In this document: piece after piece, positions 11,922 to 17,937 of the stretch
Layout of the letters: each line of letters begins with the position of its first letter
Position numbering within the stretch: the stretch's first letter is position 1
NCBI GenBank assembly: GCA_035720425.1
Contig: DASTOB010000061.1
Coordinates: 29,870 to 93,869, forward strand
DNA length: 64,000 bases
Direction of reading: 5' to 3'
Origin: Candidatus Limnocylindrales bacterium
Lineage (GTDB): Bacteria; Chloroflexota; Limnocylindria; Limnocylindrales; CSP1-4
Made by a program: the position numbers and the translations under genes
The notes under the pieces: generated by a model
The model's database searches: none
What the model was told of the DNA's origin: nothing
The model's input: only the letters and a program-made list of their open reading frames with translations

Positions 11922-13274
11922 ATGACCGTCGTGGCGCGGACCTGGAATCGGTTGACCCTTCCCGGGAAGATCGTGTTCACGGTCGTGCCGGTGCTCGTCG
12001 TCCTGACGGTCGCCGCGGTGGTGGCGATCGCGCTCGTCGGCGAGGCGGTCCTCGAGATCCTCGGCGCGAACCTGCCGATCGTCCGCTTCGTCGTCGCGGC
12101 GACGGCGATCCTGCTCATGACGATCCCGACGGCGTTCCTCATCATCTACATGGAGATGAAGGGCATCGCCCTCATGAACCTGCGGATCGGGCCAGACCGG
12201 GTCGGGCCGTTCGGTTCCCTCCTGTCGGTCATCCACGGGCTCAAGGTCCTCATGAAGGAGGACTTCACCCCGACCGGCGCCGACTCGACGATCTTCACCC
12301 TCGCCCCGGTGGTCGTCTACCTGTCGGCCGTCATGGCCCTGCTCGTCATCCCGTTCGGGCCTGGCCTGTTCGGCGTCGACATGAACATCGCCCTGCTCTA
12401 CTTCTTCGCCGTCGGCGGGCTGACCGTCGTGGGCCTGCTCATGGGCGGATGGTCGAGCTTCAACAAGTACTCGCTGCTCGGCGGTCTCCGCTCCGCGGCC
12501 CAGATCATCAGCTATGAGATCCCGCTCACCCTGTCGGTCGTCGGCGTCCTCCTGCTGGCGGGCACGATGAGCCTCAACCAGCTCGTCCAGAACCAGGCCG
12601 GCTGGTTCACCGATTGGTACATCTGGCAGCAGCCGCTCGGCGCGCTCATCTTCTTCATCGCCGCCACGGCCGAGGCGAACCGGACCCCGTTCGACCTGAC
12701 CGAGGCGGACTCCGAGATCGTGGCCGGCTTCGCGACCGAGTACTCCGGGATGCGCTTCGGCTTCTTCTTCTTCGCCGAGTACGTGAATGTGTTCATCGTC
12801 TCGGCGCTCATGGTCACGCTCTTCTTCGGTGGCTGGAACGCGCCGTTCCCGTTCCCGGCCACGAGTCTCGCGCTCGACCCGGCATCACTCGGGATCGGCC
12901 TGCTCATCCTCATCGCCGTCGTGCCGGTCGTCGCCACGCTCGTCTTCGCGGCCCCGTTCTGGCTGCTCCGCCCGGCCTGGCCGGCGTGGTACGGGCTCGT
13001 CATCGGGTTCGTCCTGTTCAACCTCGTCGCCGTCGCCGCCGTCGTCGGCTGGGCGTACATCAGCTTCGACTGGGTGGCCGGCCTCGCCTGGTTCCTGGTC
13101 AAGACGTACTTCTTCGTGTTCGTCTTCGTGTGGATGCGCGGGACGCTGCCGCGAGTCCGGATCGACCAGCTCATGAATTTCGCCTGGAAGTGGCTCATGG
13201 AGCTCGCCTTCATCAACATCTTCATCACGGCCGGGGCCATCCTCGTGATCGACGCCCTGAGGTCCGGGTCGTGA
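11922..13274 (+). CDS. nuoH: NADH-quinone oxidoreductase subunit H, with N-terminal extension and internal insertion
   Basis: RIGPDRVGPFGSLLSVIHGLKVLMKEDFTP...NRTPFDLTEADSEIVAGFATEYSGMRFGFFFFAEY...RGTLPRVRIDQLM. At 450 aa it is long for NuoH. It follows nuoD directly, where nuoE would normally sit. Confidence 0.9.
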   Translation: MTVVARTWNRLTLPGKIVFTVVPVLVVLTVAAVVAIALVGEAVLEILGANLPIVRFVVAATAILLMTIPTAFLIIYMEMKGIALMNLRIGPDRVGPFGSLLSVIHGLKVLMKEDFTPTGADSTIFTLAPVVVYLSAVMALLVIPFGPGLFGVDMNIALLYFFAVGGLTVVGLLMGGWSSFNKYSLLGGLRSAAQIISYEIPLTLSVVGVLLLAGTMSLNQLVQNQAGWFTDWYIWQQPLGALIFFIAATAEANRTPFDLTEADSEIVAGFATEYSGMRFGFFFFAEYVNVFIVSALMVTLFFGGWNAPFPFPATSLALDPASLGIGLLILIAVVPVVATLVFAAPFWLLRPAWPAWYGLVIGFVLFNLVAVAAVVGWAYISFDWVAGLAWFLVKTYFFVFVFVWMRGTLPRVRIDQLMNFAWKWLMELAFINIFITAGAILVIDALRSGS

Positions 13275-15282: not shown

Positions 15283-17937
15283 ATGGCAGACCTGATCACC
15301 CGCCCCGACGCCAGGCCACCGGCCCCACCGGCCGGGTCGCCGGCCGACGCCTCGCTCGCCGAGCGCCTGCTCGAGACGCAGGCGCCGCAGCGGCCGATGT
15401 CGACGCCGCGCATCCGGATCGAGGTCGACGGTCGGGTCGTGGAGGGCTTCGAGGGCCAGACGATCCTCGAGGTCTGCCGCGACAACGGGATCGAGATCCC
15501 GACCCTGTGCTACGAGCCCAAGCTGCCCGGCTTCGGCGCCTGCCGGATGTGCGTCGTCGAGGTCGACGGGGAGGACCATCCACCGATCTCGTGCTCGCGC
15601 GACGCCGAGGCGGGGATGGTCGTGCGAACCCAGACGGACGAGGTCCGGCGCCTCCGACGGACGAACCTCGAGCTCATCTTCAGCGACCACAACGCGTACT
15701 GCCTGCCGCCCTGCCAGAACAAGTGCCCCAGCCACATCGACATCCCGGGCTTCCTGAAGCAGAACGCCGAGGGCAACTTCCGCGAATCGACACGGATCTT
15801 CAAGCGGACGATCCCCTTCCCGTCGGTCCTCGGCCGGGTCTGTCCGGCGCCGTGTGAGGAGCACTGCCGGCGCGACGAGGTGGACGAGGCGATCGCCATC
15901 CGCGACAGCCATCGCTACGCTGGCGACCAGGTCCTCCGGGCGATGCTCGACGACGGCGTCGATCCACCGGTGCCGTTCGAGGTCCAGCCCCGGACCGGCC
16001 GGCGGGCCGCCGTCATCGGCTCCGGGCCGGCGGGCATGTCCGCGGCGTACTACCTGCTCATCTCCGGCCACGACGTGACCGTCTTCGAGCGCGACCCGGC
16101 GCCGGGCGGGATGCTCCGCTACGGCATCCCGCAGTACCGCCTGCCCAAGGTCGAGGTGCTCGAGGCGGAGTACGAGTCGGTCACCCGGCTCGGCGGGCGG
16201 ATCGTGTGCAACCAGGGCCTCGGACGCGACTTCACCCTCGACGACCTGCGCAACCAGGGCTTCGACGCGGTCGTCGTCGCGATCGGCTGCTACGACACGA
16301 ACAAGCTCGGCATTCCGGGCGAGGACGCCGAGGGCGTCTACGACGGCCTCGAGTACCTGCGCACGGCCACGCTGGGCCTCGAGGTGCCGGGGCACGCCGG
16401 CAGCCGGGTCGTCGTCATCGGCGGCGGGTTCACCTCGATGGACTGCACGCGGACGTCGGTCCGCCAGGGCGCGAAGGAGGTCACCCTCGTCTATCGGCGC
16501 GACATGAAGGACATGCCGGCCGCGAACGAGGTTCACGAGGCGCTCGAGGAAGGCGCCCAGGCCATCTTCCAGGCCGGCCCGTCGCGGATCATCACGGATC
16601 CGAAGAGCGGGCGCGTGACCGGCGTCGAGTTCATCCGGATGCAGCTCGGCGAGCCGGACGCGTCGGGGCGGCGCCGGCCGGAGCCGGCGCCCGGGACCGA
16701 GTTCACGATCCCGTGCGACCGGGTGCTCCTCGCCATCGGCCAGGGCCCGGAGCTCGACTGGATCGGACCGGGATCAGAGGGGGTCGAGGCGACCCGCCAG
16801 CGCCGCCTCAAGGCGGACGCGGTCACGTTCGAGACCGGCCGGCCGGGCGTCTTCGGCACCGGCGACGTGCGGATCGGCGCGGCGACGGTCGTCCAGGCCA
16901 TCGCCGAGGGCCGCCGGGCCGCGTACGCGGTCGATGCCTACCTGCAGGGCCTCGACCTGGGCGCGATCCGCACCCGCCAGACCCTGGCCGAGCCGCAGCC
17001 GGAGTTCCTGTCCATCGTGCCGTTCACGAGCGAGGTGAAGGAGCCGCGCTACCGGATGACGGCTATGGAGCCGGAGGTCCGAAACCGGAGCTACGTCGAA
17101 TACGAGATCCCGTACTCGCGCGAGGAGGCGGTCGCCGAATCGACGCGCTGCCTCCAGTGCACGTGCGAGGCGATCGGGTTCTGTGACCTCCGCCGCCTCG
17201 GAATCGAGTACGGGACGACGCTCCGGACGCTCGAGCCGCAGCACCACCAGGGCGCGGGCTACCGGAGCGTGACGGAGAACCGCTTCACCGGCGTCAACCA
17301 CGACTACCTCCGCGACGACTCGCACGCGTTCATCCTGCGCGAGCCGTCGCGCTGCATCGACTGCGGCCGATGCGCCAACGTGTGCGCCGAGGTGGTCGGC
17401 GCGGCGTGCTACGACTTCATGCGGATCGGCTTCGACACGCTCGTCACGACGCCGCTCGACATGAGCCTCAACGACACGCCGTGCGTGTCGTGCGGGCGCT
17501 GTGCCGAGACGTGCCCCACCGGCGCGCTCATGCCGAAGCCACGCGTGCTCCAGAAGTACGAGGTCGACGAGAGCCGCTGCATCCTGTGCGGGATCTGCGT
17601 CGACGCGTGCCCGTACGACGCGTTGCGCGACGGGGCGGACTTCGAGCTGTCGCACACGAGCCGGCAGGATCCGATGATCGACCTGCTCGCGATCGCCGCG
17701 GTCGAGCGCGAGACGGAGGTCACGTACATCCGGCGCGAGCGGGACTGGCTCGAGCGCGCGACGGCGGAGGGTCGGGTCATCGGCTCCGACCGGCTCCTCC
17801 CGGTCCTGCCGCCAACCGTCGCTGCGCGCGGCGAGACGGGCAACGGCCACGGGCACGGCAACGGCAACGGCCATACCGACGGGCACGGGATCACCGGGAT
17901 CGGGCCCGGCGGATCCGGCCACGCCCACCCGAAGTAG
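15283..17937 (+). CDS. Multi-domain Fe-S flavoprotein: NuoG-type N-terminal Fe-S module interrupted by a GltD/NfnB-type FAD-NAD(P)H domain and ending in the C-terminal half of NuoI
   Basis: - 2Fe-2S motif: [20 protein letters not shown]...ISC.
- H/C cluster: [15 protein letters not shown].
- GltD-like domain: [60 protein letters not shown].
- NuoG N4-like region: [16 protein letters not shown]...[16 protein letters not shown].
- NuoI second half: [33 protein letters not shown].
- His/Gly-rich tail: [17 protein letters not shown]...GHAHPK.
- I saw no molybdopterin-like NuoG C-terminal domain. Confidence 0.8.
   Translation: [884 protein letters not shown]

Follow-up and report, generated by a model that had tools for sequence, protein, structure and literature searches.

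The growth of complex I is attributed to the recruitment of modules, the recruitment steps themselves not being preserved. One of its subunits, NuoI (also known as Nqo9, TYKY or NDUFS8), is canonically a single polypeptide encoded between nuoH and nuoJ, with an N-terminal helix, two CxxCxxCxxxCP motifs, the hairpin strands between them and a DFE tail. The locus described here has all of these parts, and has them in the same slot, but the fold is distributed over two polypeptides encoded about 4 kb apart, with three other functional units in between. It lies in a 64,000-nucleotide stretch of contig DASTOB010000061.1 (hereafter the window; GC content about 72%), which matches a metagenome-assembled genome (MAG) of Candidatus Limnocylindrales (Chloroflexota). 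The compact nuo operon on its plus strand runs A-B-C-D-H-[I(N)E']-F-[G'GltD-I(C)]-J-K-L-M-N or, if the three open reading frames (ORFs) of interest are called P1 (13271–13927), P2 (13941–15275) and P3 (15283–17937), A-B-C-D-H-P1-P2-P3-J-K-L-M-N. By splitting nuoI, this arrangement probably plugs an NADPH/NADH input module directly into a respiratory proton pump.

Several known systems come close to one or another aspect of the locus. In the predicted 'Nuo-Bfu' complexes of Geobacter, Planctomycetes and Nitrospirae, BfuABC stands in place of NuoEFG (Schut et al. 2022, PMC9304861). As here, a Bfu-family module encoded in the middle of a nuo cluster is the proposed input of a complex I-like pump; unlike here, nuoI is intact, the canonical 14-gene nuoA–N order and the full set of bifurcation clusters are kept, and there is no GltD domain. 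In some Mbx-like operons, a GltD-related flavoprotein replaces the NuoI homologue (Degli Esposti 2015, PMC4758237), which likewise ties a GltD-type NAD(P)H site to the NuoI position. That substitution, however, occurs in Mbx/Mrp-type complexes and involves neither a split NuoI with both motifs nor a NuoF or NuoG part. A third comparison is offered by the HoxEFU diaphorase and the 11-subunit NDH-1/Fpo-type complexes, which share with this locus the E-F-U order and domain set, and an 11-subunit core that recruits a separate input module. We know of no HoxEFU or FpoF module that is covalently fused into NuoI.

The first-pass annotation of the window had taken this architecture to be undescribed, and for the searchable literature that holds: no description of a split NuoI was found there, the nearest concepts being Nuo-Bfu, the Mbx-like replacement of NuoI by GltD and the NUO-2 complex of Nitrospina. 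Neither a survey of complex I variants (10.1101/2025.03.13.643058) nor the genome papers on Limnocylindria and Thermogemmatispora mention one.

The two halves of NuoI

P1, a protein of 218 residues, starts with a GTG codon that overlaps the nuoH stop codon (GTGA); the remaining intergenic gaps are 7–13 nt. Its residues 1–88 (13271..13534, + strand) correspond to the N-terminal half of NuoI, with residues 12–76 matching positions 1–64 of the 121 positions of the NuoI model TIGR01971 (E 9e-15) and NuoI/TYKY chains in the Protein Data Bank (PDB; E ~1e-12). Besides its CxxCxxCxxxCP motif (the first of NuoI; C56/59/62/66), this segment contains the amphipathic helix, TxxYPE and, of the hairpin between the motifs, the first strand. 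P1 has five Cys residues in all – the four of the motif and C70 – and no second Cys motif, as the first-pass annotation had read it, nor any ligand Cys outside the NuoI motif.

The remainder of NuoI is found at the other end of the intervening segment, where that annotation had also placed it. Residues 754–805 of the 884-residue P3 (17542..17697, +) constitute the C-terminal half, residues 754–798 matching positions 71–115 of the same model (E 5e-14) and contributing the other hairpin strand, motif two (CxxCxxCxxxCP, C766/769/772/776) and the DFE tail. The two motifs of NuoI, in NuoI register, are therefore divided between P1 and P3 rather than carried by a single polypeptide, and neither half alone reaches the family cut-off of TIGR01971 (54.3 and 51.9 bits, against 113.05). 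When the halves are joined in silico, they give one continuous alignment to plant TYKY, E. coli NuoI and Thermus Nqo9 (85 bits; query 10–133 against chain 23–144), whereas each half by itself scores about 50 bits. The alignment has a single 2-residue gap, located exactly at the junction, and includes both NuoI-specific flanks: at the N-terminus the helix with TxxYP(E), at the C-terminus the DFE segment.

Since the gap falls only at the junction, the break must sit in the hairpin that connects the Cys motifs. In 2x[4Fe-4S] ferredoxins the two pseudo-symmetric halves of the fold meet at this hairpin, and each cluster is bound by three Cys ligands of one motif together with the CP-Cys of the other motif. 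If the two halves do come together, the locus would thus be a naturally occurring case of a 2x[4Fe-4S] ferredoxin fold divided where its pseudo-symmetric halves join.

A chance ferredoxin motif was considered as a reading of the P3 tail and rejected, both on the 85-bit joined alignment and on a search of all PDB sequences. In that search the tail matches NuoI/TYKY chains over 41–51 residues in a single stretch that continues beyond the Cys motif and into the DFE segment, whereas polyferredoxins match it merely as summed 25-residue repeats. The region around 17500–17700 accordingly resembles NuoI better than it does generic ferredoxins.

The split is also a widely conserved one. Among 5.8 billion proteins searched, over 120 clusters cover P1 at full length with 75–97% identity, and a collection with one genome per GTDB species holds at least 514 relatives, nearly all labelled Chloroflexota or Limnocylindria and several of them on contigs of 1–2 Mb. 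From these relatives we fetched 80 loci, nearly all from Limnocylindria. Every locus long enough to show it keeps the order D-H-P1-P2-P3-J-K-L, with NuoI-C on P3; together with the Pfam assignments, this synteny confirms the gene order first proposed for the window. No intact nuoI was found in the operon of the window or in those of about 60 related loci, and tblastn with every piece revealed no second copy of NuoI, NuoE, NuoF or NuoG within the 64 kb.

Across 81 orthologues, all eight NuoI Cys residues and every Fe-S Cys of P3 are 100% conserved, and they remain invariant, as do F787 and E788, once Ktedonobacteria and other clades are added. T26, Y29 and P30 of P1 are invariant even in relatives with 26–30% identity. 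Both halves of NuoI are under purifying selection at about the level of NuoK: compared with orthologous loci, dN/dS is 0.24 for NuoI-N, 0.19 for NuoI-C and 0.21 for NuoK. In databases, relatives of P1–P3 go by generic names ('NAD(P)H-dependent oxidoreductase subunit E', 'FAD-dependent oxidoreductase', 'formate dehydrogenase major subunit'), and one JGI label reads 'glutamate synthase beta subunit-like oxidoreductase' together with 'formate hydrogenlyase subunit'. P1–P3 of the window itself are GenBank entries HEU0235585-87, encoded on a 96-kb contig.

The cassette between the halves and its variants

What separates the two halves of NuoI was initially described as a NuoE'/NuoF/NuoG'-GltD cassette. 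That it is fused to both halves is borne out, but its relationships lie elsewhere than proposed: judged by homology, the cassette is a trimmed Bfu-type module of the NfnABC/StnABC kind, known from Caldicellulosiruptor and Thermococcus (NfnABC) and from Sporomusa ovata (StnABC). A rearranged NuoEFG was rejected as its identity, as P2 is nearest to the cores of NfnB, StnB and HydB, and P3 aligns to NfnA and StnC.

In P1, the NuoI half is followed by a linker (residues 89–120, 13535..13630, +; GAPETYGERREESALRRSGRPVPD...) that is conserved within Limnocylindria, with at least 90% identity at most positions among the 81 orthologues, but matches no family and is predicted by AlphaFold2 (AF2) with low pLDDT. 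Residues 121–218 (13631..13927, +) form a helical domain with a short tail. This domain resembles the N-terminal part of NuoE and NfnC, residues 125–188 matching only the first part (positions 2–65 of 145) of the thioredoxin-like 2Fe-2S family PF01257. The NuoE-like continuation noted earlier for this ORF is thus a helical anchor only, without the cysteines of a 2Fe-2S cluster. It is modelled by AF2 with pLDDT 82–97, and its top Foldseek match is the N-terminal domain of Caldicellulosiruptor (Csac) NfnC (rmsd 1.0 Å, 45% identity), the type of domain that anchors the C subunit to the A and B subunits (PMC11829005; PMC10482914).

P2 (13941..15275, +; PF01512, PF10589) is a NuoF/NfnB-like flavoprotein core with an FMN/NADH domain and an N3/B1 cluster region. 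Its best PDB matches are NfnB, StnB and HydB, and these extend over the core alone (approximately residues 103–526 of the 584-residue NfnB), the additional cluster domains that bifurcating BfuB subunits carry at both termini being absent.

P3 is the most composite of the three. Its residues 44–776 align to residues 4–699 of the 1178-residue Caldicellulosiruptor NfnA (9bov_A; E 1e-165), and about 700 residues align to Sporomusa ovata StnC (8oh5_C; E 2e-146). The NfnA alignment spans, in order, a NuoG/HydA-type [2Fe-2S] domain equivalent to N1b/A1 (residues 43–118, 15409..15636, +; PF13510, E 2e-21), an inserted GltD/NfnL-like FAD/NADPH domain (residues 140–560, 15700..16962, +; PF14691, PF07992), a CxxCxCx5C motif that is probably the A3 cluster, as it aligns to the corresponding motif of Csac NfnA (residues 623–634, 17149..17184, +), and a HoxU/HydA/NuoG-type ferredoxin-like domain with two full Cys motifs, equivalent to A2/A4 (residues 684–749, 17332..17529, +; PF22117 Fer4_Nqo3). 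The GltD/NfnL-like domain comprises a 2x[4Fe-4S] Fer4_20 part, FAD and NAD(P)H Rossmann folds and a VYRR motif. The ferredoxin-like domain is the most conserved part of the operon (96–99% identity across loci; dN/dS 0.04). AF2 models the 2Fe-2S and GltD domains confidently – pLDDT 85–98 for the latter – and gives all small 4Fe-4S regions pLDDT values of 25–44.

The alignment with NfnA ends at its residue 699, and the C-terminal Fdh/NuoG-like (tetramerisation) domain of NfnA is not part of P3. The NuoI-C motif falls on the A5 motif of NfnA, so that NuoI-C stands where NfnA has cluster A5 and an inactive Fdh-like domain. In soluble Nfn/Stn structures, A2-A4-A5 is a non-functional side branch (PMC11829005; PMC10482914), and the point at which NuoI-C is attached in P3 coincides with this branch. 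Downstream of NuoI-C, a C-terminal extension (17698..17937, +), delimited by its conservation profile, ends in a low-complexity His/Gly-rich tail (approximately residues 860–884, 17860–17937) that is not conserved in orthologues.

Compared with NfnABC and StnABC, then, the large subunit has kept its 2Fe-2S domain, its GltD/NfnL-like FAD–NADPH insert and its NuoG-like clusters, P2 is the NuoF-like core of the B subunit and the helical domain of P1 is the NuoE-like N-terminal anchor. On the other hand, the C subunit is reduced to this N-terminal domain, without C1, and fused to NuoI-N; the B subunit has no extra cluster domains; and the genes lie inside a nuo operon. The canonical N-module was not found in that operon either, given that its NuoE part lacks the 2Fe-2S domain, its NuoG-like part lacks the C-terminal domain and its NuoF is a core only. 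The Limnocylindrales lineage is generally described as aerobic, whereas Nfn and Stn come from strict anaerobes.

A survey of synteny in related genomes, extended beyond Limnocylindria by a representative-protein search and the contigs encoding the proteins found, showed that the architecture is widespread in Chloroflexota and exists in several variants. A profile-free scan of 1.8 billion representatives recovered P1-like proteins down to 26–30% identity, and several of these distant relatives join NuoI-N to a NuoE that is complete, 2Fe-2S cysteines included; some distant relatives have a BfuB-like N-terminal 2Fe-2S domain on NuoF. The order A-B-C-D-H-[I(N)-E]-F is seen in locus L001, cut off by the contig end, and fragments of the same type of order, together with a Fer2+GltD+Fer4 protein, in the similarly truncated L002 and L003, with NuoI-C visible in L002 only. 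L084–L086 have A-B-C-D-H-[I(N)-E]-F-[Fer2+GltD+Fer4+NuoI-C], not followed by nuoJ–N; the cluster occupies 4693–12917 in L084 and 6481–14281 in L086. The place of nuoJKLMN is taken in L086 by a flavin reductase and a pyruvate:ferredoxin oxidoreductase cluster.

A different solution is found in L088 (1321–6023; Logan SRR22388304), where NuoI-N with a full NuoE is followed by a 1048-residue fusion of a 2Fe-2S thioredoxin-like domain, NuoF and GltD, by a 265-residue HoxU-like protein that ends in NuoI-C, and then by J-K-L-M-N. With its [NuoI-N-HoxE/NuoE]-[NuoF...]-[HoxU-like-NuoI-C] layout, this is the variant most directly reminiscent of HoxEFU. It is rare: a search with the 265-residue protein gave two protein clusters of this type, all other matches being ordinary truncated NuoG or Fdh proteins. 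In the cultured ktedonobacterium Thermogemmatispora carboxidivorans (L089, 7150–12409; GCA_000702505.1), nuoB-P1-P2-P3 stands alone, with no further nuo gene within 10 kb. Constant across the whole family is the split of NuoI, with E-type and G/U-type fusion partners. A second, paralogous locus outside any nuo operon was also observed in MAG JANOTJ01, which is the source of L018 too; it (L074, 7046–11981) contains, in order, an 856-residue GltD + 4Fe-4S dicluster protein, a P1-like protein and a NuoF-like protein.

Proposed assembly and electron route, and competing readings

The reading that we find likely, on the homologies and conservation set out above, is that the NAD(P)H module is tethered to the 11-subunit core by re-association of the two NuoI halves, which would carry N6a and N6b, and that the resulting enzyme would be a two-flavin, non-bifurcating one. 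The half-ferredoxins of P1 and P3 would pair, each giving three Cys ligands to one [4Fe-4S] cluster and its CP-Cys to the other. The paired halves would rebuild N6a/N6b on the platform of NuoH, NuoB and NuoD, and would pin the whole module at the NuoI position.

NADPH would deliver electrons to the GltD-like domain at its FAD, from where they would reach A2 by way of both [4Fe-4S] clusters of this domain and the CxxCxC cluster, while electrons from NADH would reach A2 from the FMN of P2, if its site is active, through the N3-like cluster and the 2Fe-2S cluster. From A2 they would continue over A4 and N6a/N6b to N2 in NuoB and on to menaquinone, with pumping by NuoH and NuoJ–N; the exit at A4 would use the very branch that dead-ends in soluble Nfn/Stn. 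The same wiring would permit exchange between NADH and NADPH and, run in reverse, reduction of NADP+ driven by the proton-motive force. Since the NuoE/C1 2Fe-2S cluster and the extra cluster domains of BfuB are both absent, the predicted Limnocylindria enzyme should not bifurcate electrons to ferredoxin, although basal variants with a full NuoE might.

As to origin, one cassette in E-F-G(U) order would have been inserted into the nuoI gene of an 11-subunit operon. A single insertion into the inter-motif loop would create both fusions at once, and the insertion suggested by the first-pass annotation fits the data in this form. The locus would then be a preserved snapshot of the capture of a module by an 11-subunit core, along a route independent of the acquisition of NuoEFG: the docking of an NAD(P)H module would be recorded in the gene structure itself, as an insertion into nuoI and two in-frame fusions.

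Several points weigh against this tethered, two-flavin assembly, some of them concerning P2. The FMN/NADH motifs of this protein are altered clade-wide, with NADE(S/G)(E/D)PG changed to N-G-Y-G-A-D-P (within residues 90–102) and NNVET to a clade-fixed (H/Q/N)-N-V-Q-T (residues 217–221). The second Cys of N3 is replaced by Thr or Ser, and an additional conserved Cys lies five residues ahead of the first ligand (residues 344–355). P2 is also the least constrained part of the module (dN/dS 0.33; mean identity 67%, compared with 84% for P3). Owing to these motif changes, the lost N3 Cys and the low constraint, the NADH site of P2 may be altered or inactive.

Taken to its conclusion, this would mean that the complex assembles with P2 as a catalytically dead scaffold, and thus works as an NADPH-specific quinone oxidoreductase, fed through the FAD of the GltD domain and without NADH input; the loss of the 2Fe-2S domain of NuoE would agree with it. 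The substitutions themselves, however, are strictly conserved, with Y92, D95, P96, N218 and T221 kept in 69–70 of 70 sequences. No variation is seen in the Gly-rich loop, K73-W74 or GEET, and a compensating Cys344 is present in 66 of the 70. Such conservation suggests a site that has been remodelled but still works, and an aerobic heterotroph needs an entry point for NADH. We therefore consider a dead P2 unlikely, although it is the alternative that survives best.

Further points against the tethered assembly concern the wiring and the context of the module. The presumed exit from A4 to N6a would depart from the canonical step from N5 to N6a, and the use of NADPH is predicted from the homology to NfnA/StnC and from the VYRR motif. 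In L084, L086 and L089, nuoJ–N are not next to the cluster, so the module may also work in other contexts. The low AF2 confidence (single-chain pLDDT 25–44) of the NuoI half-motifs counts neither for nor against their pairing, as the complete A2/A4 domain is in the same range.

The gene contexts just mentioned would also suit a different explanation, according to which P1-P2-P3 form a soluble or peripheral transhydrogenase of the Nfn/Stn kind that is merely co-transcribed, the NuoI-like pieces being ordinary ferredoxin motifs and the membrane complex using a canonical NuoI, and perhaps NuoEFG, encoded elsewhere. Besides the Thermogemmatispora, L084 and L086 clusters without downstream nuoJ–N, it can draw on the P1–P2 paralogues outside a nuo operon in one MAG (L074) and on the fact that the search for another nuoEFG covered the 64-kb window, and that for another nuoI the window and the roughly 60 related loci. 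It leaves unexplained, though, why P1 should retain the NuoI-specific N-terminal helix and TxxYPE, which would have no role in a soluble ferredoxin, and P3 the NuoI-specific DFE tail. Each piece, moreover, is half of a two-cluster fold, while the other motifs of P3 already pair with one another as in NfnA. The pieces occupy the exact nuoI slot from nuoH to nuoJ in some 60 operons that contain no intact nuoI, and even the stand-alone Thermogemmatispora cluster starts with nuoB, whose product is the direct electron acceptor of NuoI. A co-transcribed soluble enzyme is, on this balance, improbable.

An electron-confurcating or -bifurcating complex of the 'Nuo-Bfu' type, in which quinone reduction would be coupled to NAD(P)H and ferredoxin in line with the prediction for Geobacter-type operons, is more doubtful still. 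The module does descend from the Bfu family, and distant relatives do have a full NuoE with 2Fe-2S cysteines and a BfuB-like N-terminal 2Fe-2S domain on NuoF. But the published bifurcation site is [B1-FMN-C1] (PMC11829005), and the C1 cluster domain is absent from the window and from all Limnocylindria orthologues, just as P2 is without the N- and C-terminal ferredoxin-type domains common to all bifurcating BfuB subunits (PMC9304861). We regard this as very unlikely.

That the split is an assembly chimera, a frameshift or a gene-calling artefact – a natural suspicion for a metagenome-assembled genome – has next to nothing to recommend it, given the same order and reading frames in about 60 independent assemblies, some with contigs of 1–2 Mb, the exact proteins in GenBank, the purifying selection on both halves and the presence of the architecture in a cultured isolate genome (Thermogemmatispora). 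The chimerism that the first-pass annotation wished to see checked has left no sign in the GenBank proteins, the at least 514 relatives, the multi-Mb contigs or the shared synteny, and the invariant order, the conserved cysteines and the low dN/dS exclude misassembly, frameshift and pseudogene readings alike.

If the two halves of NuoI do re-associate as proposed, the peripheral arm is predicted to differ from the canonical one, lacking N1a and the C-domain of NuoG and having an additional FAD/NADPH site and another entry into N6a/N6b, which bears on the question of which parts of the electron wire are essential. This would be a respiratory enzyme drawing on NADPH as well as NADH and, in reverse, making NADPH at the expense of quinol and the proton-motive force. 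Soil and fresh water harbour abundant Limnocylindria, and a direct link between their NADPH pool and the respiratory chain would change models of their redox balance. A wider proposition is that an unrecognised kind of complex I operates in Limnocylindria and, as variants, in Ktedonobacteria and further Chloroflexota: one that is reversible and fed by both NADPH and NADH, and in which two polypeptides make up the N6a/N6b subunit and the Nfn/Stn stub has become the exit wire; we see the chances of this as evenly balanced. With a variant present in cultured Thermogemmatispora, the prediction can be tested at the bench.

The remaining operon and its surroundings

All ten core subunits other than NuoI are present as judged by Pfam, and all are encoded on the plus strand. 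Upstream of P1 lie nuoA (8963..9319; PF00507, E 1e-30), nuoB (9469..10005; PF01058), nuoC (10006..10554; PF00329), nuoD (10568..11788; PF00346, E 2e-83) and nuoH (11922..13274; PF00146, E 1e-103). The nuoB ORF is open from 9199, which makes its true start uncertain; its product keeps the N2 ligand pattern CC...GDC...GCPP (GLACCAFEM and PGCPPRPE in the translation). NuoH is unusually long, at 450 residues, and its Pfam match stretches 298 model positions over 376 residues, which implies insertions. P3 is followed by nuoJ (17947..18552; PF00499), nuoK (18549..18863; PF00420), nuoL (18870..20819; PF00361, PF00662), nuoM (20828..22468, start approximate; PF00361) and nuoN (22519..23982; PF00361).

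Immediately 5' of nuoA, also on the plus strand, is a gene for an NDUFAF7/MidA-family methyltransferase (7329..8642; PF02636, E 2e-53), found at the same place and on the same strand in 63 of the 65 related loci with enough upstream DNA. The mitochondrial NDUFAF7 family methylates an Arg residue of NDUFS2, the counterpart of NuoD, during complex I assembly. By analogy, the conservation of this operon neighbour suggests that the same modification of NuoD may take place in these bacteria.

Farther along the window, the minus strand encodes a 1939-residue ORF (38057–43876) with a PMT + PMT_4TMC glycosyltransferase region at approximately residues 1170–1650 and no Pfam match over the remainder. 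A tmRNA gene (63243–63616, minus strand; Rfam RF00023, 117 bits) lies towards the end of the window, and dnaA (54019–55827, minus strand) indicates that the replication origin is probably close by.

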